From IMG/VR virus record IMGVR_UViG_3300035502_001146: a stretch of DNA of 64,000 nt; one strand, written 5' to 3'. Shown piece by piece: positions 1-22,001 of the stretch. The notes under the pieces were generated by a model. That model was not told the DNA's origin and did no database searches. It saw only the letters and a list, made by a program, of their open reading frames with translations. A program made the position numbers and the translations under genes. Positions within the stretch are counted from its first letter, which is position 1. Each line of letters starts with the position of its first letter. Origin of the DNA: an uncultured virus (IMG/VR IMGVR_UViG_3300035502_001146). Its lineage: Duplodnaviria; Heunggongvirae; Uroviricota; Caudoviricetes.

Positions 1-162
1 GAGGATATATTGATAATCCAAATTAGGAAGATTATAAGCCCACTCAAATTCAGTCCAAAGCTGACGTGGTGGAGAATTATAAAGTTTTAAATGGTAGATA
101 TCCGACCATTCGGCAGGAGTACGTTTGGATAAATCTATATTAATATCTTCAAATTCAGCCAT
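1..162 (-). CDS. Partial hypothetical protein (runs off the window start)
   Basis: ATG at 162, 6 nt after the trpF stop, with AAAGGA RBS; frame MAEFEDINIDLSKRTPAEW... is open to position 1. Confidence 0.6.
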   Translation of the reverse strand, partial: MAEFEDINIDLSKRTPAEWSDIYHLKLYNSPPRQLWTEFEWAYNLPNLDYQYIL

Positions 163-168
163 TTATTA

Positions 169-786
169 TCAGTCCTTTCTTATTGTTTGTATTAATTCTT
201 TTATTTTATTATAACTTTTAAAACCGTTTTCCTCAACTGATGAGCTTAAATCAATCACTTGTGGATGTACGGTTTTGTATGCTTTTATTATATTTTCACT
301 ATTTATACCGCCTGCAAGTACTGTGTTGTGCTTTTTTGCAAAGGCGGTTGCAATCTCCCAGTTGAAGGTCTTGCCCGTGCCGCCACGCTCTTTGGCGTTG
401 TAGGCATCAAGCACAAAGGCTGTTGCATTTGTGTATTTCGCTGCTTTTGCAAGGCTGTCACCGTCTTTAACGGCTATTGCTTTCCAAACCGTTTGACGTA
501 TTTTTCCACAATCCTCATTTGTTTCGTCGGAGTGCAACTGGCAGATATCAAGCCCGACTTCATCGGCTATGTGCCGTATATCCTCTATACTTTGGTCGGC
601 AAACACACCAACAGTTTTAATATCGGGACGGAGACGTTTTTTTATTGCTTTTGCCGTTTGTATGTCAATCTGTCTTTTACTCTTTGCAAACACAAAGCCG
701 ACATATTTTATCTCCTCAAACTCGTTTACATACTCTGCATCCTCGGTTCGTCTAAGTCCGCAAATCTTGATTTTTATATTATTCAT
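169..786 (-). CDS. trpF: Phosphoribosylanthranilate isomerase
   Basis: Motifs KIKICGL, GFVF-SKRQI, VGVF, QLH, GGTGKTFNW, LAGGI, IDLSSSVE. Confidence 0.95.
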   Translation of the reverse strand: MNNIKIKICGLRRTEDAEYVNEFEEIKYVGFVFAKSKRQIDIQTAKAIKKRLRPDIKTVGVFADQSIEDIRHIADEVGLDICQLHSDETNEDCGKIRQTVWKAIAVKDGDSLAKAAKYTNATAFVLDAYNAKERGGTGKTFNWEIATAFAKKHNTVLAGGINSENIIKAYKTVHPQVIDLSSSVEENGFKSYNKIKELIQTIRKD

Positions 787-875
787 AAAAAATTACCAAA
801 TTCTTTTATCTTATAAGTTTTTTTGCAATACAGCTAATGTTTGATTGGCATTCTCACCACAAAAATTTATTTATT

Positions 876-1228
876 GTTTTAACACACACATATATAAGTT
901 ACAACCAAAAAACGGTGGTAACTATATGTCTCAAATTTCAATACATATATATGTATAAATTGCAACAGTGTTGATGTATTACTTTGTGATGTTACTTTTG
1001 AATCTCAATACATATATGTGTATAAGTTGCAACAAAGAAGAAAACGATATAAAAGATATAAAGCAAATCTCAATACATATATGTGTATAAGTTGCAACGT
1101 CAAGAAGCCGATTGTGTTGTGTACTGTTGTAATCTCAATACATATATGTGTATAAGTTGCAACACATATTTTGACCCTAAAGTTGTAGCCGACAGAATCT
1201 CAATACATATATGTGTATAAGTTGCAAC
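876..1228 (-). CRISPR. CRISPR array 1; 33-nt repeat GTTGCAACTTATACACATATATGTATTGAGATT (minus strand), 5 spacers
   Basis: Identical repeats at 1001-1033, 1066-1098, 1131-1163 and 1196-1228; variant at 934-966; degenerate copy at ~876-905; spacers of 32, 32, 32, 34 and 28 nt; degeneracy increases away from the leader. Confidence 0.95.
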
Positions 1229-1420
1229 AACAAAATTGCACAAAAAATATTCAATTTTTTAACTATTATTTATTTGTGTTAAATAGATGATATATAAACA
1301 ACAAATTACAAAAGTTATTTATTATTAAACGAATATTAACTCTTGTACAATTTTATAGGTGCGAACCCCAATTTCAAACGCTTAAAATCAGCATTAGATT
1401 TTAAGGATTCGCACTTATAT
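1229..1420 (-). promoter_or_regulatory. CRISPR leader 1 with GTGCGAA...TTCGCAC inverted repeat (type I-C-like)
   Basis: GTGCGAA at 1359-1365 and TTCGCAC at 1408-1414; homologous to 3984-4170. Confidence 0.7.
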
Positions 1421-1424
1421 TTTT

Positions 1425-1626
1425 TAATCACAACATTACTATATATATGCCTTGTTTGTACACAAAATTCTTCTCAGCTTACTAATTATAAACACAATGT
1501 TATAAAAGCAAGACAGCACTAAAACTTTTTCCAAACAAGCTTCATTACCAAGGACAGTAATCTATCCATTAACGGTAATATTTAAAGAAGGAGTTGAGAT
1601 TCTCCTACTGTTCTTTTTCAAGAACA
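1425..1626 (-). ncRNA. Putative tracrRNA 1 (~200 nt)
   Basis: Own TTGACA-17-TATAAT promoter; loop AATCTCAA (1594-1601) complementary to the repeat 3' end TTGAGATT; imperfect anti-repeat at 1427-1450; stems covary with copy 2. Confidence 0.8.
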
Positions 1627-1631
1627 AATAT

Positions 1632-1660
1632 ATTATACCATACTTTTTAAACTTTGTCAA
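1632..1660 (-). promoter_or_regulatory. Sigma70/SigA promoter of tracrRNA 1
   Basis: TTGACA at 1655-1660, 17-bp spacer, TGnTATAAT with -10 at 1632-1637. Confidence 0.85.
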
Positions 1661-1671
1661 TAGTTTTTAAA

Positions 1672-3348
1672 TTATAATTCTGAAAAATCTTTTAACCCTA
1701 AACTTGATACCTTATGAGTAGAATTATCATTTTTAAGCTCTCTGATTACTTCATCGTGCATTTTATCGAAATTAGCAAAACCGTCAATACATTCCTGCCT
1801 ATTAAAAGTTTCCAAATCAGGATTGATGTGACTAATACAATAAGCTGCATATAAGTCACGTTGATACTTTTTACCATCAATAGTTTTAAACCTTTTGCTT
1901 AAGGGCATTTTAACGTAAGTATTATCTACGTGGTTATATTGACTTGCTTTAGCTTTTTTAGTGTTTATTTTAATAAGTTCTTTATTGAAATAACCAAGTT
2001 TCCTATTTAAGATATCCAATGCCTTTGAAGGAGCTTTATTAGCCAAAGACTTACCAAATCTCTTTTTACGGTTAAACTTACCCTTAGAATTTTTAGTAGT
2101 CTTTTTAGCCTTTTTCTGTAATGCTTTGAAATCCATATCTTCTACATAAAACTCATCGCCCATTCCAATAATTTCATTAGCAAGTGTTTCGTGTGAAAGT
2201 GTTCTTAAATCGGCTTGCTTTCTGAAAAGCTCTTTTCTTTCAGCTGCTAATTTTTTATAGTTGTTTGATTGTTTCCACTTACGTTTTTCTCCTTCTTTTA
2301 GTGTAACAAGAGTTCCATCTTCATTAAAGTTATCAGGGTTAGTAGCTCTTCTACTTCTATCCATTTTTCTATTAATTATTCTGAGCTGATTTTGAATATC
2401 TTGTGCTCCTTTTGCAAGCTCTTCCAATTTTAATTCTCTATCACTAGATACTGCAATAGTTTGAGTACCAATATCAATACCAACCTTACCGTTGCCCATA
2501 AGGCGATTATAATTAGTAGGTGGAATACCATTCAATGTTGCCTGTACAAAAAATCTATCTTTCTTTTTTATACTCTTGCGAACAATTCTACACCTAATTA
2601 TTTTGTTATTGTTTAAAGCTTCTATAATGTAGTTATTATTTTTAGGGAGCTTAATAGGATAATCTTTTTTCATATAGGTTACGCAATTCTTTTCAAGGTC
2701 TAACTTAACAGCTTGATTTTTAGAACTGCCATTTATAGAATCAACAGTATTATAACGCTTGAAATGGAATCTTTTGCCATTGCCCCATAAGTTTTTATCG
2801 TAAGCTCTCCAAATATCGTCTCTAATACTTTCAGCTGTTTTAGAATGTATATTAAAATGAGAATATACTTTTTGAACATCTTTGTCAAAATCATATTTTG
2901 AAATTCTATATTCTTTTAACAATTCATTTTTTATATTATTAAACTCAGGTTTAATCAATTTAAATTCATCATTTAATTTCTTTTTTTCTGCTGCAAGTAT
3001 TTTTGTCTGAACTGCAATATCTTTCTTCTTATTATTTAAATCAATAATTTCTTCGTTAGACAAATTATTATTTTTTAAAAGTTCATTTATCTCAGCTATC
3101 TCATTATTCAACTCATTTATTTGATTTTTATAATCATTAATAGGCTTCCAATACTTTTCAGTAGTTTTTTCTATATACTTATACTTCTTAGTCTTTTGCA
3201 TTTCTTTATATCTTTTTAATGTTATACTAAGAACCGTATTATATACCTTTCTACAATCTTCCAATTTCTTATTTAAGAAATCAATTTGGAATTTTTCAAG
3301 GTTCAAAGGTATTTGTACTACAAAGCATTTCTTTTCTGATTTAGCCAT
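1672..3348 (-). CDS. tnpB: CRISPR-associated TnpB/Cas12f-like RNA-guided RuvC nuclease, 558 aa
   Basis: RuvC-I GIDIG, RuvC-II YVEDMDF, RuvC-III QRDLYAA; bridge-helix segment RKMDRSRRATNP; N-terminal coiled-coil insertion; own promoter at 3394-3422. Confidence 0.9.
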   Translation of the reverse strand: MAKSEKKCFVVQIPLNLEKFQIDFLNKKLEDCRKVYNTVLSITLKRYKEMQKTKKYKYIEKTTEKYWKPINDYKNQINELNNEIAEINELLKNNNLSNEEIIDLNNKKKDIAVQTKILAAEKKKLNDEFKLIKPEFNNIKNELLKEYRISKYDFDKDVQKVYSHFNIHSKTAESIRDDIWRAYDKNLWGNGKRFHFKRYNTVDSINGSSKNQAVKLDLEKNCVTYMKKDYPIKLPKNNNYIIEALNNNKIIRCRIVRKSIKKKDRFFVQATLNGIPPTNYNRLMGNGKVGIDIGTQTIAVSSDRELKLEELAKGAQDIQNQLRIINRKMDRSRRATNPDNFNEDGTLVTLKEGEKRKWKQSNNYKKLAAERKELFRKQADLRTLSHETLANEIIGMGDEFYVEDMDFKALQKKAKKTTKNSKGKFNRKKRFGKSLANKAPSKALDILNRKLGYFNKELIKINTKKAKASQYNHVDNTYVKMPLSKRFKTIDGKKYQRDLYAAYCISHINPDLETFNRQECIDGFANFDKMHDEVIRELKNDNSTHKVSSLGLKDFSEL

Positions 3349-3537
3349 TTTTATTTCCTCCTTTTAATATTTTAGTATTTTGTCTATGCTTGTATTATAT
3401 CACAAATTCTATTATTTGTCAAGTATTTTTTAACAATAAAAAAGAACTTAGTGGTAAAACTAAGCTCTTTTTGAATTGTAATTTATTTGCAAGGAGGATT
3501 ATTACAAAATGGCAAAATGTATAATCAATTAAATAAA

Positions 3538-3756
3538 TTACAATGTATTTATGAAATCTTTAATTGTTTTTAAGTCATCAGGATTATGAGTAACAACCTC
3601 TACTGGTAAAGAAAAGTCCAAAGAGAAAAGACCCATAATAGACTTACCGTCTACTATATATCTATCGGATTTTACTTCAACATCACCGTTGCATTTATTA
3701 GTTGTATTTACAAAATCCTTAACTGTTTGAATATTATTAAAAGTTATTGTCATCAT
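3538..3756 (-). CDS. HPr-like protein (Ser46 motif retained, no His15 motif)
   Basis: VDGKSIMGLFSL motif; 72 aa. Confidence 0.8.
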   Translation of the reverse strand: MMTITFNNIQTVKDFVNTTNKCNGDVEVKSDRYIVDGKSIMGLFSLDFSLPVEVVTHNPDDLKTIKDFINTL

Positions 3757-3879
3757 TTTCTACCTCCCTTTTTATTTTTATATATTATATATATAAATAA
3801 AAACAAAAGTTAAACAAAATAATAAAAATTTTATTTTAATTTTATCAAATCAACATATGCAACTTACAATGATAATTCA

Positions 3880-3983
3880 ATTACAATACATATACATATA
3901 CATATATAAATTGCAACGTGAATGATTATGAGGAAAATAATAACAGCACATATTCCAATACATATACATATATAAATTGCAAC
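3880..3983 (-). CRISPR. CRISPR mini-array 2; repeat GTTGCAATTTATATATGTATATGTATTGGAAT, 1 spacer
   Basis: Repeat at 3952-3983; degenerate repeat with a 6-nt duplication at 3880-3917; spacer 3918-3951; flank homologous to the array 1 leader. Confidence 0.8.
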
Positions 3984-4172
3984 TGCAACATTGCACAAGA
4001 ATATTCAATTTTTGAAATTTATTTTAATCACAACAAATAAATGATATGTAAATAACTTTCCTATAAAAGCTATTTGTAATCAAAAAATATCACCTTTTGT
4101 GCAAAATTGCAGGTGCGAATCTAATTTTAAAATATATAAGAACAATATTCTTTTTTTAAGATTCGCACTTGC
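3984..4172 (-). promoter_or_regulatory. CRISPR leader 2
   Basis: GTGCGAATCT at 4113-4122 and AGATTCGCAC at 4159-4168; homologous to leader 1. Confidence 0.7.
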
Positions 4173-4177
4173 ATTTT

Positions 4178-4380
4178 TAATTGCAATTTTATTATATATG
4201 CCTTGTTTGTACGCAAAGTCCTTCTCAGTTTACTAATTATAAACATAATGTTATAAAAAACAAATAGTACTAAGACTTTTTCCAAAACAAGCTTTATTGT
4301 CAAAGAAAGCAATCTTTCCATTAACGACAATATTTAAGGGAGGAGTTGAAATTCCCCTACCGTTCTCTCTTTCAAGAACA
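4178..4380 (-). ncRNA. Putative tracrRNA 2
   Basis: Diverged copy of 1425-1626; promoter at 4386-4414; loop AATTTCAA at 4346-4353; anti-repeat at 4180-4201. Confidence 0.8.
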
Positions 4381-4429
4381 GTTATATTATATCACACTTT
4401 CAATCTTTTGTCAATAGTTTTTAAAAAAA

Positions 4430-4840
4430 TTATTGAGCATATTTATAAATAAAATTATCTTCTGTTTCTGTAAAGTTTCTACTTAACTTATTATTATGCT
4501 TAACAATTTTTATTTCATCATAATTAAAAAACCAATCTGTAGAATAAACGCTATTTTTATCATCATTTTTAAGCAACCTAATTCTTAACTTATCTTTCTT
4601 AACCGCAGGGCAAATAAATATACCAAATTTTTTAATATTAGGTATATAAACAATATCTCCTGATTTAATTCTTTTCTTATATCCACTCCACCATTCTAAA
4701 TTAATATTTTTATCTGTTACTAAACCATTTATTATCTCTGATAAAGATGTATTAGATGCGTTTTCTTTCTCTACATAATTGTTCATTAAATAATTTTTAA
4801 ATTCATTTGTAATACTTTCAACTTCATTAATACTAAGCAT
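4430..4840 (-). CDS. Hypothetical protein
   Basis: 136-aa ORF with AGGAG RBS. Confidence 0.7.
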   Translation of the reverse strand: MLSINEVESITNEFKNYLMNNYVEKENASNTSLSEIINGLVTDKNINLEWWSGYKKRIKSGDIVYIPNIKKFGIFICPAVKKDKLRIRLLKNDDKNSVYSTDWFFNYDEIKIVKHNNKLSRNFTETEDNFIYKYAQ

Positions 4841-4913
4841 AAATAAATATCTCCTTTTAAAATGTTTAATAAGATATTTATATTATATGCTTATTTTTCT
4901 TTATTTATACAAC

Positions 4914-5648
4914 TTATTGAAAATAATCACCTTGGGCAAATACTTTATAATTACTTATTATATCTTGCTCTACTCTATTCTTTATATAAAAGCCTTTTAT
5001 TTCAAAAGGTCGTTTGCAATTCTTAGGAATAGTAATAGTTGTATCACTAATAGCAATAGCTTCACCATCTTCATCATAAAAAACAACCCTTATACAAACA
5101 GACTGCTCTTTATTTTTATTGTTACTTATTTTACCTGTAACTATAGGAGCTTTATTTCTATATTTTAAATCAGTATTACTTACTTCAAATTCATTTACTT
5201 GCTGCGTAGCTGCAACAATATTAACATGAGGAACTAATATCAAACTTTCATTATTTAATGCATCTTCTGTTAATTTTAAATTTCCTATATCATTATAGAA
5301 GTAACCTTTTTCATTTGGTCGTATTACAGATGGACAAGAAGTAATAATACCACTTGTTTGAAAATACTCTCCATTATTATTTTTTAAATCAAATGTACAA
5401 TCTTTTAGATATATATTATTATTTCCTGTGTTAGTAATTTCAACTATACCATAATATTCCTTGTTATCTAATTCTACATAATCAAGCCTTGTATTTGTAA
5501 TTGAATAACTTATTTCATCAGTAACACTAATATCCGTATCTTCAATTACAACTTCATTATTACTTTCAGTTTTATTACAACTTATCAATAAAGAATAAAT
5601 GATGATAATAAGGAAAATGATTTTAATATATAAGAATTTATTTTTCAT
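4914..5648 (-). CDS. Putative lipoprotein with two Ig-like domains; paralog of 6461-7423
   Basis: Hydrophobic N-terminus ending LISC; EYYGIVEITNTG...YLKDCTFDL shared with the paralog. Confidence 0.7.
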   Translation of the reverse strand: MKNKFLYIKIIFLIIIIYSLLISCNKTESNNEVVIEDTDISVTDEISYSITNTRLDYVELDNKEYYGIVEITNTGNNNIYLKDCTFDLKNNNGEYFQTSGIITSCPSVIRPNEKGYFYNDIGNLKLTEDALNNESLILVPHVNIVAATQQVNEFEVSNTDLKYRNKAPIVTGKISNNKNKEQSVCIRVVFYDEDGEAIAISDTTITIPKNCKRPFEIKGFYIKNRVEQDIISNYKVFAQGDYFQ

Positions 5649-6000
5649 TCACTATCAGCTCCCTACTTATTTTATATTAAAAATATTATTAAAAAAAACA
5701 AAAAACGAGAAGTTTATATATCTCCTCGTTTCTTGCTTCCTTATTAAGGGGTACATGAAAAAATTTTATTGCGAAGATTATTATATATCAATTATCTAAA
5801 TTTGTCAAGAACTTTTTTGTACAAAAAAAGAGTGCCAACGAACAGCACTCTTTTTCCTTGTAACCACTTTATTTTATTAAGGAGGACCCCAACTATGAAA
5901 CAAAATTGGAGCAACAAAACACAATCACAACACTAAAACTTAGTGTCACTTAGTAAATATTATTTATAATTGTTTTTATATTAGGTAAATTAAAAAATTT

Positions 6001-6405
6001 TTAAATAAGAAAAATATTTTTAAATACCACGAAATAATTCTTAATAAGAAAATTTAGAGTAAGTATTATTAAGAATATATATAGATATTTGTTAGTAATA
6101 CTAAAAACCTTGATTTTATTAAAGAAAATAGCAATAGTATTTTTAATCATAAAGATACTTCCTAATAATATTGTATAGATTACAATAGGGTTATAATAAA
6201 TACTCTTTAACAGCTCTCCTTGAAACAATAATATAGTAGCTCTTGTACCACCGCATAAAGGACAATATATATTAAAGTTTGTTTTCAAGAAACAGTTTGT
6301 TTCTATGATGAAATACTTAGATAAAATAAAATAAATAATTATTATTACAATTGAAAATATTCCTAAGTAATAAAGCAATTTATCTTCTATGTTAAATTTC
6401 TTCAT
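6001..6405 (-). CDS. DUF2752-like membrane protein
   Basis: C...CPLCGGTRA motif, YNP, three hydrophobic segments. Confidence 0.75.
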   Translation of the reverse strand: MKKFNIEDKLLYYLGIFSIVIIIIYFILSKYFIIETNCFLKTNFNIYCPLCGGTRATILLFQGELLKSIYYNPIVIYTILLGSIFMIKNTIAIFFNKIKVFSITNKYLYIFLIILTLNFLIKNYFVVFKNIFLI

Positions 6406-6460
6406 ATATATTCTCCTTTCTAAAAAAGAGAGGGAGAATTATATCTCCCTCTTATATGTG

Positions 6461-7423
6461 TTACCACTGATAATAACTTACCTGTGCGATAGTTTTATAA
6501 TCTCCAACAGTATTTGCAGTTACATTATCATTCATAAACATACCCGAATTTTCAAAACTCTTTTTGCCATTAGCAGGGATGTCGTAAACATTTGTTCCTG
6601 TTATTGCCAACACCTCACCATTTTTATCATAAAAAATTGTTTGTACATAACAATTTTGTTCTTCGTTCGTAGTATTTATAATTCTACCTGTGATAACAGG
6701 ATAATTGCTATCATACTTTAATTCAGTATCGCTTACTTCCAAATCGGTTGCTTCACCTGTTGCTTCTACGACAGTAACTTGTGGTACTAAATTTATACCA
6801 TTGCTAACAGATACACCATCATCAAGAGTAGTAGAACCTATATTGTTGTAGAAATAACCTTTTTCACCAGGCTTAATTACATCAGGAACTGAACTAATAA
6901 AGTCCTCTGTCTGCAAAAGATGACCTGTATTATCTTCCAAATCAAATGTACAATCTTTAAGGTAAAGATTTGTACTACCTGTATTTGTTATTTCAACAAT
7001 GCCATAATATTCTGTTTTACCAATTGAATTAGTGTAATATTCAAACTTAGTATTACTAATTTCATAATTGGTTTCTCCTGTTGAAACATCAGTAGAACTT
7101 TTATCTTCTAAACTATCTGAGCTACTTGCAGGAGTACTTGTACCTGTTGTAGTAGAAGTATCACTTTTACTACTCATAATAGTTATTCCACCGCCACAGC
7201 AACACAAAAGGAAAATAACACCAACGATAATAGCAATTATTAGTACTGTTGGATTCTTATTCTTAGCTCCACATATTGGACAACTCTTTGCTGTCTTTGC
7301 CATTGGACTACCACAAGTAGGGCATTTTTTCATACCATTGGGTATCATATTATTTACGCCATTATTCATACCATTGTTTGTATTATTCATACCGTTATTT
7401 ACATTATTCATATTATCATTCAT
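6461..7423 (-). CDS. Zinc-ribbon membrane-anchored protein with Ig-like ectodomains
   Basis: CPTCG...CPICG, transmembrane helix, Ser/Thr linker. Confidence 0.75.
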   Translation of the reverse strand: MNDNMNNVNNGMNNTNNGMNNGVNNMIPNGMKKCPTCGSPMAKTAKSCPICGAKNKNPTVLIIAIIVGVIFLLCCCGGGITIMSSKSDTSTTTGTSTPASSSDSLEDKSSTDVSTGETNYEISNTKFEYYTNSIGKTEYYGIVEITNTGSTNLYLKDCTFDLEDNTGHLLQTEDFISSVPDVIKPGEKGYFYNNIGSTTLDDGVSVSNGINLVPQVTVVEATGEATDLEVSDTELKYDSNYPVITGRIINTTNEEQNCYVQTIFYDKNGEVLAITGTNVYDIPANGKKSFENSGMFMNDNVTANTVGDYKTIAQVSYYQW

Positions 7424-7625
7424 AAAAAGTCCTCCTTTAGTTTTTTAGTATTAATGTTTTTTAGAATTGATAAATTAGATTTCCTTTATTTACTTTTATT
7501 AACCTCCTTATATTTATTTGAAAATCATTTTTAATGTACTTATATAATACCACACTTTTTATTCTTTGTCAAGTATTTTAAATAAAAAAGGTGACTAAAA
7601 AATAGTCACCTTTTTTGTATAAGTA

Positions 7626-9818
7626 TTACAATAAATCTCCAACAAATTCATCAATATCATAAGGAGTAATAACTTTAATTAAAGGTTGATTGTTTTCTTC
7701 CCTCTTTTTGTTAAGCTCCGTAATATCTATTTGTTTGTTAGTAAAAATAACATCAGCGTTAGAAATATCATCAGTTTCAATTCCTCTTGCCTGAATATTA
7801 TATTTAACTAAATCATACATACTCATTCTGTTAGTATGGATAAAGTTATATAAAATAACCTGCAATGAATTTAAATGAGTTTCTACCATCTGAGTTTTTG
7901 GTGTAGCCTTTTGTTTCATATCACAATGAGCAATAGGGGCATCTACATAGATAATTTCCTTAGTTTCAATATCCATAATAAATGGTACTATATTCATTTC
8001 GTTGGTCGTTATAGCCATTTTATTAAAGACATTCTTAGGATTTATCTTACCTGTAAGTTCATTGGTATATCCAAATGTACAATTTAATTGACTAAATGGT
8101 ATTTTTGAAAACACATAAATCTGAGGAACAATATATTTAACATTATGTTTCCTAAGAGTTTCTACATATATGTCAATAAATTCAGCTGCACCCTCACCAT
8201 CGAAATCTCCACCGTCAGTAATATCTCCTGAATGTTTCATTCCCTCACATTTTAAATGAGTAAAATCAACATAATCTACACAAGTTAAATTTTCAGTAAA
8301 CAAACCACAAGATAAGTCTACATCAATTCTTGTACCATCTTCTGTATTAGTCCAATGGATAAAAGCTCTTAATTTATCGTAATCAAAACTTTCCCTACTG
8401 CCTCTTGTAATAATTCTACTTGTAGAATTACTTGTTCTTAAAGTATTGGGAATTGCAAAGTTTTTAAATTCATCAGATAAATAAACGTAGCCCATATAAT
8501 CTTTTTCCATATAAAGATTTACAAGAGCATTATTGCTTACCTGAACGATATAATCAATAAATTTACTCTTTAAATCATTACAAGTATTTAAGACTGCATA
8601 GGATTTACTTGAATTAGCTTTTACATTAAATACTCTTAATTCTTCTTTATTATAATTCTTAAAGAATGTAATAATAGAAATAAGAACAGGAGAGCTTAAC
8701 TTACTAACAATATTTTTATAAACATTCATAATATAATGAAGGTCTTTTTCTGTAAGGTCAGGCTTATTGATAAACTCATTTAATCTTCTTGCAAATTCTC
8801 CTGGTCTTGTTTTAAGTAAATCAACAGCAGGAATAATTTGATTATTCTTAATAAGATTATCAACCTTACCCATAAATGTATCAATATGCTCGCCATTTCT
8901 AAGCATAGAAATAGCTTTAAGGGCATAATCATACTGTTTAAAAGTACCTACATTTAATTTATAAGCTGCGGTTATCCAAAGGTTTTTCTTCTTATACATA
9001 TCTTCATAAGCATTGCTATTATTCTTAACAACAGTATTTAATAAAGATACGATAAATTTCTTTTCTCTATTTTTAAGGTTCTTAAAACGACACTGAGTAA
9101 CTAAAGAAATATCACCGTCAGATAACCCAACAATAAGTCTTAATACATCAGTCGTATTATTAAACCACTTAGTAGTATATAAAGATAAATCGTTTTGCAT
9201 AAGAAGCTTAGTAACAGCAATAAGATTTTCTTTAAAAGGAATTTCCTTAATAGAAAGAATAATATTACTATTAACAGAAACGGAGTTCTTTATATCTTCT
9301 AAGTCTTTATTAGATAAAGAAGTTTTAGAGCTAAGAAGATTTTTGATGATTTTTGCATAATCATCAGAAGTAGCCTTTTCTAATTTAATTAACTCTACAT
9401 TATCTTCTGATTCAATATCAGTTGATATATCATTCAATGTAGAATAATTAACATCAGCCCCCTTTAAAGATTTAAGAATATCATAAACTTCCATAAGAGT
9501 GTCTCTAATATGGTCTAATTTATAAAAAGTTAAATCATCAAAAGAAGAACCCAATGTATAACCTAATCTTTTGAAATATTCATTACAATCATTAATAACA
9601 TCTTTTTTACCAAGATAGTCAGGTACAAAAGCAATGTAAAAATCTTCAAGACTATTAAATTTTTCGTGATTGAGGTCTTTCAACTTACTATCTTCATTTA
9701 AGAAGTCAAGCAAATCTTCTTTATTTTTTGCTGCAACAAATGAATCATAAGCAAATTCTTTTTCAGTAACAATAAAAGAATTTTTTCTACGTAACAAAAC
9801 TTCATTCATTATATTCAT
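7626..9818 (-). CDS. Large helical protein with a C-terminal TerD-like domain
   Basis: RPGEFARRL, W...IDVDLS, HSGDIT...AAEFIDI motifs; start placed at ATG 9818 after GGAAGG. Confidence 0.7.
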   Translation of the reverse strand: MNIMNEVLLRRKNSFIVTEKEFAYDSFVAAKNKEDLLDFLNEDSKLKDLNHEKFNSLEDFYIAFVPDYLGKKDVINDCNEYFKRLGYTLGSSFDDLTFYKLDHIRDTLMEVYDILKSLKGADVNYSTLNDISTDIESEDNVELIKLEKATSDDYAKIIKNLLSSKTSLSNKDLEDIKNSVSVNSNIILSIKEIPFKENLIAVTKLLMQNDLSLYTTKWFNNTTDVLRLIVGLSDGDISLVTQCRFKNLKNREKKFIVSLLNTVVKNNSNAYEDMYKKKNLWITAAYKLNVGTFKQYDYALKAISMLRNGEHIDTFMGKVDNLIKNNQIIPAVDLLKTRPGEFARRLNEFINKPDLTEKDLHYIMNVYKNIVSKLSSPVLISIITFFKNYNKEELRVFNVKANSSKSYAVLNTCNDLKSKFIDYIVQVSNNALVNLYMEKDYMGYVYLSDEFKNFAIPNTLRTSNSTSRIITRGSRESFDYDKLRAFIHWTNTEDGTRIDVDLSCGLFTENLTCVDYVDFTHLKCEGMKHSGDITDGGDFDGEGAAEFIDIYVETLRKHNVKYIVPQIYVFSKIPFSQLNCTFGYTNELTGKINPKNVFNKMAITTNEMNIVPFIMDIETKEIIYVDAPIAHCDMKQKATPKTQMVETHLNSLQVILYNFIHTNRMSMYDLVKYNIQARGIETDDISNADVIFTNKQIDITELNKKREENNQPLIKVITPYDIDEFVGDLL

Positions 9819-9919
9819 AGTTACCTTCCACCTTTCTCTTTCATAAAAATCTCTTTTAATTTCTCTCTTAAAAACATTGTAATTATTATACCACATTTTT
9901 TATTATTTGTCAATAGTTT

Positions 9920-10405
9920 TTATAACCAATCAAAAAGATTTTTATAACTGTCCTTTATATATTGTTCCATCATTGTATTTATTTCATCATTTAACTCATT
10001 ATATAATTTTTCATCTTCAAAAGCAAATCCATAATAATTACAAGTAGTAAATTTTTTTAATTTACGAATAATATATTTAACCGTATCGATAGAAAAGTAT
10101 TCTAACAATCTATAAGTATTAACGGTTTCAGTTGATTTATATTTCATAATACGAATGTTTACTTCTGAAGGGCTATTAGTTGCTTCGTAAAATAAAATTA
10201 AGTCGTTCATTTTAAGTAAAAACTTTATATCATCAGGAATTTTTTTATCTATATATTCACAAACCATATTCCAATCCCAAGTATGAGCATTAAAAGCTTT
10301 ATTCTTTAATGTAAATCCCTGAATAATAGGAATAGTACACAATCCTTTTAATTTCTCTGTATATTCAGAATCATAATTATATGTAAAACAAGGTATTTGA
10401 AACAT
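9920..10405 (-). CDS. Hypothetical protein, related to 24753-25232 and 25213-25701
   Basis: Shared C-x-IPI...F-x-L and DIKFLLK-type motifs. Confidence 0.65.
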   Translation of the reverse strand: MFQIPCFTYNYDSEYTEKLKGLCTIPIIQGFTLKNKAFNAHTWDWNMVCEYIDKKIPDDIKFLLKMNDLILFYEATNSPSEVNIRIMKYKSTETVNTYRLLEYFSIDTVKYIIRKLKKFTTCNYYGFAFEDEKLYNELNDEINTMMEQYIKDSYKNLFDWL

Positions 10406-10434
10406 TGAATAATCAACTCCTACTCTCTTTAATT

Positions 10435-10788
10435 TTATTCTAATAATTTATGTGCCAATCTACAACCGCAGGTTGTACAATAAAAATCTACATTTTTATC
10501 TAAATCAGGAATAGTAGATAAGATTTCTATATTCTTTTTCATATCATAAATAATATTACGAATTTCTTCTTCAAAATCATCAAGCCCACCCTGAATAGAA
10601 TCTTTTAATGTTTTATCAGCATAATAAACATAAAATTCAGTATCTTTTATAAATATTTCACATTCAAAGCCTAAATTTCCATCGTAATCTGATTCGATAA
10701 TTATATTGTTGTATTCACAACGGAAATTATTTCTTTTTTTTAATTGATTAACTAATTTTATAGGTTTTCCAAAAAAAGTAAAATTCAT
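10435..10788 (-). CDS. Hypothetical protein with C-terminal CxxC
   Basis: ORF with GGAGG RBS. Confidence 0.6.
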   Translation of the reverse strand: MNFTFFGKPIKLVNQLKKRNNFRCEYNNIIIESDYDGNLGFECEIFIKDTEFYVYYADKTLKDSIQGGLDDFEEEIRNIIYDMKKNIEILSTIPDLDKNVDFYCTTCGCRLAHKLLE

Positions 10789-10840
10789 ATTTATAACCTC
10801 CTATGTAATTATTATATCATATTTTTTATTATTTGTCAAT

Positions 10841-11330
10841 AAAAAAGGACGAGAAAAAATCTCGCCCAATATATAAAGTAAAAGATGTCAACTAAATAAA
10901 AAACATTAGTAAGCAATTTAGTTAAATTGGAGTTGAAATATATTTACTGTAATAGAAGTAAACTAAATTATATCTAATGTTCAGAGTTTTTATATATTCA
11001 TTTTAACGATTAAAGCAATTAAGTTTTATATAGCATTTTATATATCCTAAATTAAATTAGAAGTAAATTGTTTTATATTTAAAAAGAATATATTTGATTA
11101 TAATACAGAAATAATAATCATTAGTTTTAATAAAATCATCATTAACTTACTATAACCATAAAATAGAAGTAAAAACTAATATATTTATTTCATATAAGGA
11201 AAATTAAGAATTAAGACAATTAATATTATTTGATATACCTATACATATTAAATAATATGTACGGTATATAGGTTTTAGAATTTTTGTTCTTTTTTAGAAG
11301 TAAATTATCTTATATTTAATTTTCACTGTA
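10841..11330 (-). ncRNA. Transcript containing four tandem structured RNA units (stem, internal loop, 9-bp stem, UACUUCUA)
   Basis: Promoter at ~11336-11364, terminator at ~10841-10867; units at 11199-11324, 11108-11191, ~10992-11093 and 10902-10981. Confidence 0.7.
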
Positions 11331-11481
11331 AAAATATTATATCACAAATATTTTATAATGTCAAGACATAAATTTAAAAACAAACATATTTTCTATTTTT
11401 TATAGACCTCAATTTTTTATTTATATAATAACAAGCGAAATATTTTTTGCTTTAATACATTAAGACATTCGAGGTGTGTAT

Positions 11482-12882
11482 ATGAATAAAAAATATTATG
11501 TATTAGATACAAACATCTTATTAGATGACCCACAAAGTATTTATAAATTTGAAGATAATATAGTTATACTTACAGAAGCTGTTATTGAAGAAATTGATAA
11601 TTTTAAAAAGGGTAAAAAAGATATCAATAATAACGCAAGAGCTGTAAGTAGAGAAATAAATAAATTAAGAGAAAAAGGTAAGTTAGAAGATACTACTTTA
11701 ATTGATGGTATTCGTATAAATGAAATTGATGATTCTTATGGTATATTAAAGATTGAGAATAATCATTACAATATGACTTTACCTGAGAGTTGGGAAAAAT
11801 CTAAGAGCGATAATAGAATTATTCAGGTTGCTAAATTCTTTAAAGAGTCAGGCGAAAATGTAATAATTATAAGTAAAGATATAAATGTAAAAATCAAAGC
11901 TGACATAATGGGGATTACAGCAGAAGATTATGAAAATACACAGGTTGATAATGAATATAAAGGCAGAGCTGAAATCTATATATCTGAGAATTATATAAAT
12001 CAAGCTCTTAGTAATGGTAATAAAATTAAAATTGATGAAATAGATAATATATATAATGAATTGGGTGAATTAAGTAATAGAGAATTTTATCCTAATGAAT
12101 ATTTACTTATACATAAAATAGAAGATAGTAATTCTACCTTAATGGGAATAATAACAAAAGATTGTAAAGAAATAGAATTTATATTAAATGAATATCATCC
12201 TTATGGTATAACAGGTAAGAATATAGGTCAGAAATTTGCTATTGATGCAATGATGAGAAGTGCAGAAGATATACCATTGGTTATACTTCAAGGTGGTAGC
12301 GGTACAGGTAAAGACTTTATTACTTTAGCTTGTGGATTAGAACAAACCTTTAATGGATATGCTGATTATAGAAGAATTTTAATAACAAGAGAAGTAGAGA
12401 GCTTGGGTAAAGATATAGGTTATTTACCTGGTACAGAAGAAGAAAAGATAAATCCATTTTTAAGAGGCTTTATGGATAACTTAGAAGCTTTAGTGGATAG
12501 TAATGAAAAAGAAAGATATAAGAATGAGAAAGAATTAAAAGGTAAGGTACAATACTTATTTGACCAGAATATAATTACAGCAGAAGCTATTGCTTATATG
12601 AGAGGTAGAAGTATTAATAAACAGTTTATTATTATTGATGAAGCTCAGAACTGTACTGTAAGTCAAATGAAAGGTATTTTAACAAGAATTGGTATTGATA
12701 CTAAGATAATTATATTAGGAGATATAAACCAAATAGATAATATATATCTTGACGAAAAGAACAATGGGTTAAGTTGGGCAAGTGAATTAATGAAGGATAG
12801 TCCTTTAGCTTGTCAGATTACATTGAAAGACGGTGAAAGTGTTAGAAGTGATTTGGTAAAAGATATATTAAATAGACTTTAA
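11482..12882 (+). CDS. phoH: PIN-PhoH fusion protein (PhoH2/YlaK type)
   Basis: PIN motif YVLDTNILL; Walker A GGSGTGK; GYLPG, YMRGRS, IIDEAQN, GDINQID. Confidence 0.92.
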   Translation: MNKKYYVLDTNILLDDPQSIYKFEDNIVILTEAVIEEIDNFKKGKKDINNNARAVSREINKLREKGKLEDTTLIDGIRINEIDDSYGILKIENNHYNMTLPESWEKSKSDNRIIQVAKFFKESGENVIIISKDINVKIKADIMGITAEDYENTQVDNEYKGRAEIYISENYINQALSNGNKIKIDEIDNIYNELGELSNREFYPNEYLLIHKIEDSNSTLMGIITKDCKEIEFILNEYHPYGITGKNIGQKFAIDAMMRSAEDIPLVILQGGSGTGKDFITLACGLEQTFNGYADYRRILITREVESLGKDIGYLPGTEEEKINPFLRGFMDNLEALVDSNEKERYKNEKELKGKVQYLFDQNIITAEAIAYMRGRSINKQFIIIDEAQNCTVSQMKGILTRIGIDTKIIILGDINQIDNIYLDEKNNGLSWASELMKDSPLACQITLKDGESVRSDLVKDILNRL

Positions 12883-16299: not shown

Positions 16300-16746
16300 T
16301 TATTTCTCAGGGTTTTGAACCTCCAACTCTTGACTTGTTACCTTTTCATATAAAGCAACAGAAGCAGGCTTAGTTTTTCTTTTTCTTTTTGGTTTTTCTT
16401 TACTTACTTTTAATTTTTCTAATAATTCATCAATTTCTTCTTCTTGTTTTTTTTCATCAATTATTTCTTTTTCTTCTTCATTTTCCACAGGAGATTCTGA
16501 ATCTGATTTAATCATACCTTTAATTGCCTTATCTATCAATGGTTTTTCAAAAATAATGAAATAAAGCACCAGTAGATTGACGAATGGTATTAATGCAATG
16601 AATAAATTCAGTAAAGTATACGCTGCATAACAAGCAGTTGAAACAGATTTGTTTTCTTTCTCAAGTTCCTGTATAAAATAACTCTTTCTTTTTTCTAAGT
16701 ATGCAAATATTAAAAGTACTATTATGTAAAAATATAAATTTCTCAT
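16300..16746 (-). CDS. Hypothetical membrane protein
   Basis: Two hydrophobic segments and a charged tail. Confidence 0.6.
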   Translation of the reverse strand: MRNLYFYIIVLLIFAYLEKRKSYFIQELEKENKSVSTACYAAYTLLNLFIALIPFVNLLVLYFIIFEKPLIDKAIKGMIKSDSESPVENEEEKEIIDEKKQEEEIDELLEKLKVSKEKPKRKRKTKPASVALYEKVTSQELEVQNPEK

Positions 16747-17300
16747 TTCTTTTCCTCTACTTTCTTTATAAGGTCATCTATTGATATGGGTCTGTATTCG
16801 TTATTCATTATTCCTACATTAATCATTTTACACGGAATATCTTTTTCCTTTAAATATTCTTTAAAGTACTGTATGTATTCGTCTTCAATAGAATTATGTA
16901 CGTGACCATAGCACATAATACCATTACTATGTTGGTGATTATAAAACAACATAGGATAATGAGATAAAACGAAAAGTTTATGGTTATATTTAAATTCGTG
17001 ATAATCCTTTATATCAATAAAACATTCCTTAAAGATATCTTTTTTATAATATTCATTGTCGTGATTTCCTTTTATTAATATTTTATTTCCTTTAAGCTGC
17101 TGTATGTTATTAACAATATCTTCTATATTAACGTGAAAAGAAATATCGCCTAATATATAAACCGTATCATTATTACTGACTGTTTTGTTCCAATTATTGA
17201 TTATAAAGTTATCCATCTCCTCAGTAGTTTCAAACGGACGTTTATCAAAGTTTATAACATTCTTATGCCCGAAATGTAAATCGCTTGTAAAATAAATCAT
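16743..17300 (-). CDS. Calcineurin-like metallophosphoesterase
   Basis: SDLHFGH, LGD, GNHD, SHYP and GHVH motifs. Confidence 0.9.
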   Translation of the reverse strand: MIYFTSDLHFGHKNVINFDKRPFETTEEMDNFIINNWNKTVSNNDTVYILGDISFHVNIEDIVNNIQQLKGNKILIKGNHDNEYYKKDIFKECFIDIKDYHEFKYNHKLFVLSHYPMLFYNHQHSNGIMCYGHVHNSIEDEYIQYFKEYLKEKDIPCKMINVGIMNNEYRPISIDDLIKKVEEKK

Positions 17301-17342
17301 AGTTACTTTCCTTTCTTTTTTAATATAAATATTTTTTAAATA

Positions 17343-17882
17343 TTAAAATACGACAGGAGTAACATAAAAGTTAAATTTATGGTCTGTTGCTTCGCATAAT
17401 TCCTTAATGAACTTTAATGCTTGATGTTTTCTTTTAAAGTAGAAATTCTTTTCATGGATACTATAATCTTCTCCAAGAACAAGATTTCTTCTTATATCTT
17501 TTTCCATCTGCCTGATTTCAGCAATGGTTAATTTCTTATCAAAACACAGCTCATCCAATGTTATATAATCTCTATTGAAAACCAAATAATTATTACCACG
17601 ATTACCAAGTACGTTCATACTTAAATTACCTGCGATAATATGATGTAACCATTTTTTCTTCAATACACCAAAAGCTTTTTGATTTTTAATAGAATAGGAA
17701 TTGAATGTTATTAAATCATCATATTTATCTAACAAAGAAGTTAAGTGCTTCTGTAATAATAAATTATATAGATAATCATAAGCATACCAATCCCAATTAA
17801 ACGATGGATAAAACATAAATTTATCTTTGTATTCTTCTCTATATGGAGAAGAATCATATCCAACGACTTTATAGACAGTCAT
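17343..17882 (-). CDS. Hypothetical protein (tandem paralog family A, divergent)
   Basis: ORF with RBS; weak similarity to 17986-21340. Confidence 0.65.
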   Translation of the reverse strand: MTVYKVVGYDSSPYREEYKDKFMFYPSFNWDWYAYDYLYNLLLQKHLTSLLDKYDDLITFNSYSIKNQKAFGVLKKKWLHHIIAGNLSMNVLGNRGNNYLVFNRDYITLDELCFDKKLTIAEIRQMEKDIRRNLVLGEDYSIHEKNFYFKRKHQALKFIKELCEATDHKFNFYVTPVVF

Positions 17883-17985
17883 TTCTAAACCTCCTTTCTA
17901 AACCCTCAGGATTGATTTTAAGAGGGTTTTAATATTTGATTGTGTATTTATTCATTGTTTATTTAAAAACCTCTTATATGACGTT

Positions 17986-18492
17986 TTAATCTCTTATACA
18001 GGTTATAAGCACGGTTGAAATATCATAGGTGGTTTCTAAGTAATCAGAAAATTCTTTTGCTGCTGATTTAGTAGTAAATGCTATAGATTCATCATCAATT
18101 ATATAGTCTTTATTTTCTTTAAAGTTTTTAATGATGATATTTTCTATATATTTACATTCTTTCATATCGAATTTCTTGTGTAAGTAGGAATAAAATAAAT
18201 CTCTACCCTTATTGAATAACAATCTATTTGTTTGGGTTTTCTCTATTTTCATTTTCTTATTTTGTAAGATTAAATGAAACACCCCTGCGGTTAGAGATTT
18301 AATTATTTCATCATTATATATTACAAATCTTTTGAATTTGTAACATTTAAATTTACTTATAATTTCATTAGCGGTATCAAAGGAACAATTTGTTTGTTTC
18401 ATTAGGTGTTTAGCATTAAATCCTTGATTTGGACTTGTTATTATATTACCATTCCAACTGTGAGGACATACAATATAAATATATTTAGCCAT
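17986..18492 (-). CDS. Hypothetical protein (family A)
   Basis: FHL...LLFN...EC.YI motif. Confidence 0.7.
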   Translation of the reverse strand: MAKYIYIVCPHSWNGNIITSPNQGFNAKHLMKQTNCSFDTANEIISKFKCYKFKRFVIYNDEIIKSLTAGVFHLILQNKKMKIEKTQTNRLLFNKGRDLFYSYLHKKFDMKECKYIENIIIKNFKENKDYIIDDESIAFTTKSAAKEFSDYLETTYDISTVLITCIRD

Positions 18493-18496
18493 AGAA

Positions 18497-19006
18497 TTAT
18501 ACCTCCTGAACCATTACAATAAATTCACCATACGCCTGATATATTGTTCTTATATAATTAATAAATTCTTGTGCTGCTTGTTCTTCTTGAAAATAAAAAG
18601 CAAAATCTATTATTTCATAATCAATATCTTCTTTATATTTAGAAAAAACATTATCAACCATATCAAATTCTTCTTTGGTTAAAATATTGTTTACAAAACA
18701 ATAATTAGGTGGTAATCCATTATATCTTAACTTATCGCTTTCAACAGGAGTGTTGATTTCTATCCCATTTATTACTAAATGAAATAGCTCTTTATTTAAA
18801 TCATCAATAATTTTATTATTGAGTATTTTATAGTCTTTAATAATTAAAGAATCATAAAGGGCTAATTTATGTAAAAACATAAGTAAATAAATAGGATAAT
18901 AAGAAATTTTGTAATTAGGTAAATATTTTACCAAGCTACTAAAACAACTTATTCTACTGCAATATTTATTGTCTAATCTTTTTTCATACAAATAGTAATA
19001 TTTCAT
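18497..19006 (-). CDS. Hypothetical protein (family A)
   Basis: LFHLVINGI motif. Confidence 0.7.
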   Translation of the reverse strand: MKYYYLYEKRLDNKYCSRISCFSSLVKYLPNYKISYYPIYLLMFLHKLALYDSLIIKDYKILNNKIIDDLNKELFHLVINGIEINTPVESDKLRYNGLPPNYCFVNNILTKEEFDMVDNVFSKYKEDIDYEIIDFAFYFQEEQAAQEFINYIRTIYQAYGEFIVMVQEV

Positions 19007-19023
19007 ATTATTCCTTCCTGTAT

Positions 19024-19560
19024 TTAAAATCTAACCTTTTTTGGTCTTTCTTCAAGCAAATAAGTATAATTAATATTATCTATAAAGCTAATAGCAAATT
19101 CATAATTCTTACTTTTAACCACATTATCCAAGTAATTCATTATATCAAAGCTATTCTGTTTACCTTTAAAGAAAACTTCTTTATCGCAACAAATTACATT
19201 TTTATTTGCCAATATATATTTACTTAAATTATTACATTCTCTAAGAGAAAAATCTTTTGCTAAATAAAAATAAGCCAATGATTCCTGTCCATCAAATAAT
19301 AAATGATTATCTTCATCTATAGTTATATTTAGATTTATTCCCTGTAATGTTAAATGAAATGTATGGGCTTTTAAATCTTCCAATACTTCCTCTTTATTAT
19401 CTACAACTTTAAATCTATTAAACATTATATTCCTATTGCTTAATATTTTGGTTGTGTCATCTTCATTAGTAAGACTACAAATATCATTATATGTAACAGT
19501 ACTATATTCCCATCTATAATTTATGTTTTTTATTTTTTGAATTGAATATAGCTTTATCAC
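19024..19560 (-). CDS. Hypothetical protein (family A)
   Basis: FNRF...FHLTLQGI...LLF...SLA.FYL...ECN motif. Confidence 0.75.
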   Translation of the reverse strand: MIKLYSIQKIKNINYRWEYSTVTYNDICSLTNEDDTTKILSNRNIMFNRFKVVDNKEEVLEDLKAHTFHLTLQGINLNITIDEDNHLLFDGQESLAYFYLAKDFSLRECNNLSKYILANKNVICCDKEVFFKGKQNSFDIMNYLDNVVKSKNYEFAISFIDNINYTYLLEERPKKVRF

Positions 19561-19583
19561 TTTTTAAATCCCCTTTCTATAAT

Positions 19584-20129
19584 TTATCCTACTTGTTCTT
19601 TGTATGCCCCTTTTTCATCATAATAATTATATTGTTCTCCATCTACAACTACTGCAAATGTTGTATTGGTGAATATTCCATCATTAATAAATGAGGTTAA
19701 TATTTTAGCGGTAATATAATTTTTAAAGAAAAGTTCAGCATCATAAACAAATATATCTTCATTTAATTCTTTTTCAATATACTTAGTTATATGGTTGCAT
19801 TCTCTAAGATTTAAAGTTTTGTTTATATAAATACCTGCCAATGTATTACTACCATTAAATAATAAATGATTATTTTCATCAATAGTTATTTTTATATCTA
19901 TTCCACGTAATAAAAAATGTAAAGTACGGGCTTTTAGTTTGTCAAGAACTTCTTTTTGATTTTTAATCACCATATATCTATTAAATAACATAGTTTTATT
20001 CCAATCAACAAGAGATTCAAATTTTTTCTCTCCTAATATATTACTGCATTTATTGAAAGTAAGTATTTTAAGTTTATATTCTACTTTAACCCAAGTTGAT
20101 TGGTGTATTGTGTATAAATATTTATTCAT
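19584..20129 (-). CDS. Hypothetical protein (family A)
   Basis: Same motif as its neighbours. Confidence 0.75.
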   Translation of the reverse strand: MNKYLYTIHQSTWVKVEYKLKILTFNKCSNILGEKKFESLVDWNKTMLFNRYMVIKNQKEVLDKLKARTLHFLLRGIDIKITIDENNHLLFNGSNTLAGIYINKTLNLRECNHITKYIEKELNEDIFVYDAELFFKNYITAKILTSFINDGIFTNTTFAVVVDGEQYNYYDEKGAYKEQVG

Positions 20130-20146
20130 AGTTTTACTCCTTTATA

Positions 20147-20737
20147 TTAATCATGTATATCTTTTGTTTTTCTAAATTCACTAAATCCTGTTATTATATA
20201 ATCATAATCCATACTTCCTATACTCATAATTGATTCTCTATCAATATTACATATTGAAGCTATATTGTTAGTTATACAAATTATATCCTTTGGTTTTCTA
20301 AAGAAGAACTCTTTATCATAACATATAATATCGTCCTCTTTATCAAGTGTCTTTGATATATATTTGCATTGATTAAAACTTAATCTACCATTTAAGTATA
20401 ACTTAGCTAATGAATGGTCGTCATTAAACAATAAATTATCATTTTCATCAATACTCATTTTTATATCTACATCTTGCAACTTTAAATAAAAGCTTACAGA
20501 ATTAAGAGATTTAACGACTTCTTCTTTATTATCTACTACCTTATATTTGTTAAAGAATATCACCTTAGGTTTATAATTATTTATTACATTAAGAATATCT
20601 TCGTGGTTGTTTAATTTTTTTATATCATTATAAGTAAGTATTTTTCCATTGTATCTATAACCCCATTTATCTTTTGGTATATCATCTATTTTTTTCATAC
20701 TTGCAATTGTATATAGATTTTTATAATTAAACTTCAT
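20147..20737 (-). CDS. Hypothetical protein (family A)
   Basis: Same motif as its neighbours. Confidence 0.75.
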   Translation of the reverse strand: MKFNYKNLYTIASMKKIDDIPKDKWGYRYNGKILTYNDIKKLNNHEDILNVINNYKPKVIFFNKYKVVDNKEEVVKSLNSVSFYLKLQDVDIKMSIDENDNLLFNDDHSLAKLYLNGRLSFNQCKYISKTLDKEDDIICYDKEFFFRKPKDIICITNNIASICNIDRESIMSIGSMDYDYIITGFSEFRKTKDIHD

Positions 20738-20749
20738 ATTTTCCTCTCC

Positions 20750-21340: not shown

Positions 21341-21428
21341 TTTTAATTTTCTCCTTTTGCTTTAATTTACATTTATTATACCACAATATTTATTATTTGT
21401 CAAATAAAAAATAGGTGAAATTATTCAC

Positions 21429-21989: not shown

Positions 21990-22001
21990 TATTATTCCTC
22001 C

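Follow-up and report, generated by a model that had tools for sequence, protein, structure and literature searches.

A phage-like element carries a probable minimal type V CRISPR system with tracr-like RNAs apparently derived from a TnpB omega-RNA

The 64,000-nucleotide (nt) viral sequence IMGVR_UViG_3300035502_001146, the whole of which is called the window here, contains a CRISPR locus that lies entirely on the minus strand. Its center is a 558-amino acid (aa) open reading frame (ORF) for a TnpB-family RuvC nuclease (1672..3348), flanked by two units, each made of a tracr-like RNA, a leader and a repeat array. The locus is probably a minimal, dual-RNA, TranC-like type V system of recent TnpB origin, in which the omega-RNA of a transposon would have been grafted onto a pre-existing type I-C array on a phage-like element. 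This interpretation draws on computed promoters, folds, omega-RNA homology, pairing register, likeness to type I-C arrays and an intact active site.

The two tracr-like RNAs, RNA1 (1427..1625) and RNA2 (4180..4379), appear to be rewritten omega-RNAs of the TnpB family, with hairpins P1, P2 and P3 kept and the P1 loop rewritten to pair with the 3' end of the repeat. Standalone relatives of the nuclease gene carry past the stop codon an element of ~170 nt that ends in the transposon right-end hairpin followed by TCAG, and nt 45-99 of RNA1 match the DNA just 3' of tnpB in these relatives (74.5%, E 0.001). Omega elements were recognized by a regular expression in 81 of 121 downstream segments (71 distinct), and a covariance model was built from 50 omega-RNAs picked from the 71, mostly the shorter ones and none from the window. 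Searched against the 64 kb, with E-values that are rough, this model ranked RNA1 first (27.2 bits, E 1.5e-4, 1423-1605) and RNA2 second (23.7 bits, E 0.001, 4270-4393), and the next-best match in the window reached 14.5 bits. The omega pseudoknot, which joins the loop of the first hairpin to the end of the element, is paired in 97% of alignment cells with 24 two-sided changes at one pair (n = 50); relatedness inflates these counts, and slid controls drop to ~40%.

In the alignment with omega-RNAs, P2 and the base of P3 line up, the P1 hairpins of RNA1 and RNA2 share the 12-nt interior, and the anti-repeat occupies the place of the right-end hairpin; neither RNA has that hairpin or a TCAG end. 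The pairing of loop with repeat keeps the register of the omega pseudoknot, so that the spacer would begin where the omega guide began. Compared with 60 omega interiors, the 12-nt P1 interior has a mean identity of 0.28/12 in the forward orientation and 4.9-5.3/12 when reversed. The omega pseudoknot (PK) and stem 4 are matched in the available text of PMC10097598 to the two repeat:anti-repeat (R:AR) duplexes of Cas12f, R:AR-1 and R:AR-2, and this mapping agrees with the arrangement of the window RNAs. A preliminary description of the locus had viewed the RNAs in a Cas12f/Cas12k frame; as an origin this is unsupported because they appear to descend from the omega-RNA of the nuclease's own TnpB family.

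The same description called the two RNAs functional tracrRNAs. They are real, structured, promoter-driven and tracr-like, and their function as such we infer from sequence. Each is ~200 nt long and has a sigma-70 promoter that matches the consensus at 12/12 positions: the RNA2 promoter (TTGACA-17-TATAAT with an extended -10) lies at 4386..4414, and that of RNA1 at 1632..1660, directly past the nuclease stop codon. Among 36 promoter sites in 800-4600, the only other one at 12/12 is that of the nuclease gene (3394..3422). The ends of RNA2 were deduced from its promoter and its anti-repeat (4180-4201), and its pseudoknot loop lies at 4346-4353. RNA1, which is defined by its omega-model match, pairing and fold, comprises an extra 5' hairpin (1610-1625), P1 (1589-1606, with the pseudoknot loop at 1594-1601), P2 (1544-1579), P3 (1451-1539) and the anti-repeat (1427-1450). 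No terminator-like site was found between RNA1 and its leader and array.

The sequences quoted earlier for these RNAs are all present on the minus strand at the positions given, and the three compensated internal stems hold: among 38 stem pairs compared between RNA1 and RNA2, 30 are unchanged, 4 differ on one side, 4 differ on both sides and none is broken. The two RNA cores fold with z-scores of -3.1 and -2.0. Words of the locus occur in five animal-gut RNA runs; contigs from four of them were examined, and all four cover parts of 1135-1605, RNA1 included. Exact-match contig records occur in three RNA libraries (X1, X3 and X4), and some contigs span RNA1, the leader and the first repeat. The contig ends seen at 1574-1605 may stem from branch points in the graph and need not be RNA ends. 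The nuclease ORF is nearly uncovered; as genes cannot be ranked by contigs, no weight was given to this. The commonest natural RNA1 variant has 11 substitutions, 5 at unpaired and 6 at paired sites of the homology-supported fold; read by hand, 5 of these 6 preserve the pair, including a two-sided change from G-C to A-U. In a second natural variant, two anti-repeat pairs are improved.

Pairing with the repeats is predicted to involve two duplexes, a short one in the pseudoknot and a longer one between repeat and anti-repeat, as proposed earlier, and a single guide RNA (sgRNA) design is indeed derivable from these RNAs. All 8 nt of the RNA1 loop form Watson-Crick pairs with the 3'-terminal 8 nt of repeat 1. 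The 8-mer has an expectation of 0.009 per 200 nt and occurs twice in the window outside the array; of these two copies, only the one in RNA1 lies in a 5-bp stem. The RNA2 loop likewise pairs with repeat 2 (7 pairs, 1 G:U). The further claim that each RNA covaries with its own repeat survives in two compensatory tracr:repeat pairs, at repeat position 8 (C:G vs U:A) and position 30 (G:C vs A:U), and fails as a strict match of one RNA to one array. The RNA2 loop pairs better than with repeat 2 both with the array-1 trailer repeat (934-966; 8/8) and with repeat 1 (8 pairs, 1 G:U), and the long anti-repeat of RNA1 forms a stabler duplex with repeat 2 than with repeat 1 (-17.3 vs -14.5 kcal/mol). 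The RNA1 loop meets a central mismatch in repeat 2. At positions 8 and 30 the trailer repeat has the RNA2-type state, which suggests that array 1 drifted and that RNA1 followed at these two sites; the RNA1 long anti-repeat did not track the change at position 16. The support for the long duplex is positional, not energetic.

The repeats and leaders are best read as derived from a type I-C array rather than from a transposon end. The 91 Clostridia genomes surveyed yielded 30 cas1 loci, 15 of them over the I-C cut-off and 11 of these with arrays. A full leader inverted repeat, GCGAA..CGCAC, occurs in 7 of these 11 I-C loci and is partial or variant in the others; it is found in 0/9 non-I-C cas1 loci with full upstream sequence. 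A type I-B origin of the leaders was rejected, as I-B-like loci have a different inverted repeat. Both window leaders (1229..1426 and 3984..4179; ~195 nt) have GTGCGAA..TTCGCAC arms, at 1359-1414 in leader 1 and 4113-4168 in leader 2, which stop 130 and 129 nt, respectively, before the first repeat (104-137 nt in I-C hosts). The repeat fits the I-C pattern in its length (32-33 nt), GT start and ATTGAAA(T/C) end, and its last 12 nt have a mean identity of 8.5-9.5/12 to 11 I-C repeats vs 4.8-4.9/12 to the 71 omega ends. The strong I-C repeat hairpin, the substrate of Cas5d, has been lost (-2.5 to -5.6 vs -12.8 to -16.8 kcal/mol in the 11 I-C repeats). Blind scans for the leader motif were uninformative (1/50 genomes; 13/401 genomes, below the reversed control), and an array lay near 0/81 leader-motif loci (80 viral, 1 genome). 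Leader inverted repeats of types I-C and I-F have been described as adaptation motifs (bioRxiv 10.1101/2023.05.26.542337). The protospacer-adjacent motif (PAM) of type I-C is TTC (PMC8406640), and those given for OsTranC3 and, in the text available, for LaTranC (bioRxiv 10.1101/2025.09.28.678669) are TTC-type; taken with the I-C leader motif, these point to an I-C spacer source and a TTC-like PAM for the window system.

The same dual-RNA system could also have obtained its repeat by splitting and duplication of the omega-RNA 3' end, the I-C likeness then being convergence or chance. This is the published model for Cas12f and TranC (PMC10097598, in the part available), and two Ruminococcus loci of the same TnpB family, L011 and L014, show it. 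These have a promoter, an omega-derived RNA with the loop unchanged and an array of 26-nt repeats and ~35-nt spacers upstream of tnpB (L011:1354-1750, L014:2629-2970); the repeats are made of the transposon right end (8.7/12 to omega right ends vs 6.2/12 to I-C), and tnpB has no downstream omega-RNA of its own. One inverted-repeat arm also occurs upstream of their arrays, so that a single arm is weak evidence. For the window, a split origin is improbable: its repeat reaches only the 4.8-4.9/12 given above to omega ends, the length, GT start and leader with an inverted repeat at host-like distance are those of I-C, and the P1 loop is rewritten instead of conserved.

A graft like the one proposed for the window element appears to be shown by an Oscillospiraceae lineage. 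In 7 of 301 Oscillospiraceae genomes, a gene for a ~510-aa relative is followed by the inverted repeat of I-C, an RNA of omega descent and repeats of 32-33 nt. Across the eight loci of this type (including L074), the inverted repeat is present in 7/8 and the pseudoknot register in 8/8, and L350 has a compensatory change in the pseudoknot. The repeat ends in this lineage are closer to neither I-C nor omega. These relatives, compared by description only, may correspond to TranC clade 3. Side observations concern the same group and other relatives: in L071, L074 and L345-L350 (Oscillospiraceae/Clostridia), a type I-C leader immediately 3' of tnpB is interrupted by a tracr-like RNA; in L081 (4348-4900), an unrelated array with ~37-nt repeats follows ~110 nt after an intact TnpB element that has its omega-RNA, possibly a pre-recruitment state; and L018 has two more full omega-RNA copies upstream of tnpB (455-623 and 1021-1189), possibly an omega array.

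Read together, the loci would allow a broader scenario, tentative and on present evidence rather doubtful: one TnpB family gave rise to CRISPR effectors on no fewer than three separate occasions (one split, in L011/L014, and two I-C grafts, in this element and in Oscillospiraceae), a single micro-inversion of the pseudoknot hairpin occurred in the window lineage, and the host I-C Cas1-Cas2-Cas4 still feeds the array. Since the omega loop reads TTGAAA like the end of an I-C repeat, a flipped hairpin would be an instant anti-repeat. By inspection, the Oscillospiraceae P1 interior has no clear inversion; the micro-inversion is therefore not general, and the reversed likeness may just reflect selection for pairing. 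If the scenario were true, feeding by host I-C machinery would explain the TTC PAMs of TranC-type nucleases and would predict one here.

The nuclease itself matches TnpB models weakly (NF040570, E 9e-18, under cut-off). It has two close relatives, P0001 and P0002 (86% and 74-77% identity), followed by thousands of ~486-aa proteins at 40-47%; searches of viral and metagenome collections did not turn up the DNA of P0001 or P0002. The catalytic triad D292/E403/D498 is intact and invariant in 15 aligned relatives, no C4 zinc-finger motif is present between RuvC-II and RuvC-III, and the N-lobe carries a helical insertion of ~60 aa. A structure model (pLDDT 82.5, pTM 0.48) resembles Cas12f, TnpB, Cas12p and LaTranC at 9-15% identity, with CnCas12f1 as the top Foldseek match (E 2e-10); a sequence search of the PDB gave nothing significant. 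Residues 1-275 are identical to P0001 at 258/275 positions and residues 301-558 to P0002 at 255/258, with the crossover around the RuvC-I motif. The protein thus looks like a natural domain swap between two allele types. In the tree, it belongs to a separate, long-branched clade of three proteins nested among insertion sequence (IS) TnpBs; L011 and L014 are placed elsewhere than the window and Oscillospiraceae clades, and a single origin of the latter two is neither supported nor rejected (p-AU 0.074, 24/60 rows).

Cas12f (V-F) effectors have a C-terminal zinc finger, and Cas12k (V-K) systems have an inactive RuvC and Tn7-like genes. A Cas12f lineage was rejected for the window protein on its 10-15% identity to Cas12f structures, the missing zinc finger, nearest kin among IS TnpBs and an RNA homologous to omega-RNA; Cas12k was rejected because the catalytic triad is intact and no Tn7-like family occurs among the scanned ORFs. 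Cas12n (V-N), with its tracrRNA in the effector C-terminal tail, does not fit RNA1, which has a promoter of its own and starts past the stop codon. Identity with LaTranC was likewise rejected (14% by structure; 12-residue fingerprint not found in 299 proteins).

TranC systems were reportedly described by Jin et al. in Cell in 2025. As described in the available parts of PMC13639567 and bioRxiv 10.1101/2025.09.28.678669, TranC covers reRNA-derived tracrRNAs. The window shares with TranC (PMC13639567; bioRxiv 10.64898/2026.03.27.714800) a TnpB-like effector, here RuvC-intact and placed among IS TnpBs, an apparently omega-derived tracrRNA and an adjacent short array without cas1/cas2 or any other adaptation module among the scanned ORFs of the window. 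It differs in the extra helical insertion of the protein and in a tracr-like RNA that lies upstream of the whole leader, has its own promoter and is present in two copies. TranC clade 3 (OsTranC3) is characterized in the text available by Oscillospiraceae hosts, an enlarged bridge helix, repeats of 32/36 bp and a TTC/TTTN PAM (bioRxiv 10.64898/2026.03.27.714800), a description that suits the Oscillospiraceae relatives above.

With IS200/IS605 TnpB, represented by the ~486-aa Clostridia family and with ISDra2 as the reference for omega-RNA architecture (PMC10097598, in part), the locus shares 40-47% protein identity and the same scaffold of P1 pseudoknot, P2 and P3 in the same register; it is unlike these OMEGA systems in that the right-end hairpin is replaced by an anti-repeat, TCAG is absent, the loop is rewritten and the guide would come from an array in trans. 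The predicted pairing follows the two-duplex logic of Cas12f (R:AR-1 pseudoknot plus R:AR-2; PMC10097598). Compared with type I-C arrays, repeat length, GT start and repeat end are alike and the strong repeat hairpin is lost; the leader agrees in part, with matching arms and distance and an inverted repeat of 54 nt instead of 40-41 nt. Cas12r of Thermus Lalka phages, as presented in the accessible text of bioRxiv 10.64898/2026.04.20.719267, is likewise a phage-borne, TnpB-derived type V system with proposed use of host type I (I-E) adaptation; unlike the window system, it needs no tracrRNA, its PAM is A-rich, and it stems from a different branch of TnpB.

Several points weigh against the graft interpretation. 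The energy of the long duplex is within background (-16.1 vs -11.9 +/- 3.6 kcal/mol, 638 windows), and the Oscillospiraceae long duplex is best with its own repeat in just 2/8 loci. The inverted repeat of the window leaders spans 54 nt vs 40-41 nt in I-C hosts (13-14 nt wider), and host adaptation may therefore no longer work. A host array with the window repeat was absent among 401 Clostridia genomes, in which the repeat pattern gave isolated matches only (40/401). No spacer target was found in GenBank phages (searched with spacer 1 and with array 1), plasmids, the window or the fetched loci, nor by exact 20-mers of spacers 1 and 2 in IMG/VR. The RNA-library contigs indicate presence only, with no strand, no ends and possible DNA carry-over; the commonest RNA1 variant has one pair-breaking substitution and a 1-nt deletion in distal P3 that removes a pair; and covariation within the clade rests on two copies plus the RNA-contig variants.

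Some of these points would also suit a decaying relic, that is, an IS beside a captured I-C array that once co-evolved with it, in which spacer uptake and cutting have ceased and the RNAs are orphan transcripts. The degenerate array 2, the lack of spacer targets in the collections searched, the widened inverted repeat and the mere three close proteins known agree with decay; the intact ORF and catalytic residues, the perfect promoters, four identical repeats with unique spacers and the absence of broken stem pairs between RNA copies, together with structure-preserving natural variants, make it unlikely. More remote still is a role of the RNAs mainly on or against the host I-C system, as decoys, repeat binders or regulators, with the nuclease secondary. 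The anti-repeat and loop could bind I-C-like repeat ends of a host; the omega scaffold and pseudoknot register are kept, serving TnpB binding by analogy (PMC10097598, in part), and the central anti-repeat fits the AT-rich repeat of the element, not GC-rich host I-C repeats.

Under the graft interpretation, an anti-repeat would have taken the place of the omega right-end hairpin, and the P1 loop would have been rewritten for the repeat 3' end in the ancestral register. From the computed features we infer ribonucleoprotein (RNP) formation, processing, a PAM, adaptation fed by the host and an action against rival elements. Each repeat would be bound by RNA1, and by RNA2 in trans, in two duplexes, the 8-bp pseudoknot and the long one, and a host RNase or the nuclease would trim the latter. 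The RuvC protein would then cut spacer-matching DNA beside a T-rich motif on the 5' side, probably a TTC-like one. Host I-C Cas1-Cas2-Cas4 probably recognize the leader and insert new spacers, and competing mobile elements are the likely targets. With its two compensatory pairs, RNA1 may be partly re-tuned to the current array-1 repeat; RNA2 would keep the older state and probably serves both arrays.

On the minus strand, the order of the locus is promoter, RNA2, leader 2, two-repeat array 2, HPr-like ORF, promoter, 558-aa ORF, promoter, RNA1, leader 1 and array 1. Array 2 (3880..3983) has just one good repeat (3951-3983), a single 33-nt spacer and a degenerate repeat (3880-3917). Array 1 (870..1228) has four identical 33-nt repeats, the older trailer repeat and a degenerate end repeat, with spacers of 32, 32, 32, 34 and ~28 nt. 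Between the two units, identity is 166/198 for the RNAs and 138/195 for the leaders. The 72-aa HPr-like ORF between array 2 and the nuclease (3538..3756; PF00381, E 2.5e-4, under cut-off) has the Ser motif, is followed by a terminator-like hairpin (3439-3472) and is probably a passenger. No cas family was found among the scanned ORFs of the window (8 + 37 by Pfam, 43 by PHROGs), and no Rfam family reached gathering score within 1-12000.

The window has a GC content of 25.9% and contains genes for PhoH, a beta-clamp and an endolysin-like protein and three tRNAs, along with mostly unknown ORFs. P0001, the closest relative of the nuclease, is encoded on a contig of at most 502 kb, and P0002 on one of at most 119 kb. 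The element is likely a large phage, and only likely because no virion gene was recognized in the window. A TrpF-like (PRAI) gene lies directly downstream of array 1 (169-786). Two paralogous genes for putative lipoproteins or membrane proteins (4914-5648 and 6461-7423) have a common 183-nt stretch that is 72% identical, and 16300-25700 holds a series of ~17 ORFs (136-284 aa) on one strand; those scanned among them almost all lack Pfam or PHROG matches.

Recruitment of TnpB as Cas12 has been put at ~50 events in the available text of PMC10691335 and PMC12669027, and two origins of the array have been proposed, duplication of an omega segment or insertion near a pre-existing array (PMC10691335). 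A published link between a TranC-type tracrRNA and an I-C leader was not found in titles, abstract starts and passages and may already be in print; TnpB-to-Cas12 recruitment and reRNA-derived tracrRNAs are known already, and the tie to an I-C leader may be new. The two proposed origins bear on the still open question of how the single guide RNA of a transposon evolved into separate tracrRNA and crRNA. In this element one can follow the array-insertion route from base to base, and a relative within the TnpB family shows the omega-duplication route. For practical use, the locus offers an uncharacterized nuclease of 558 aa whose scaffold is defined and comes in natural variants and which is itself a natural swap of domains from two alleles. 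The I-C leader yields a testable prediction of spacer source and PAM, and the locus looks like a snapshot of one way in which new CRISPR systems arise.

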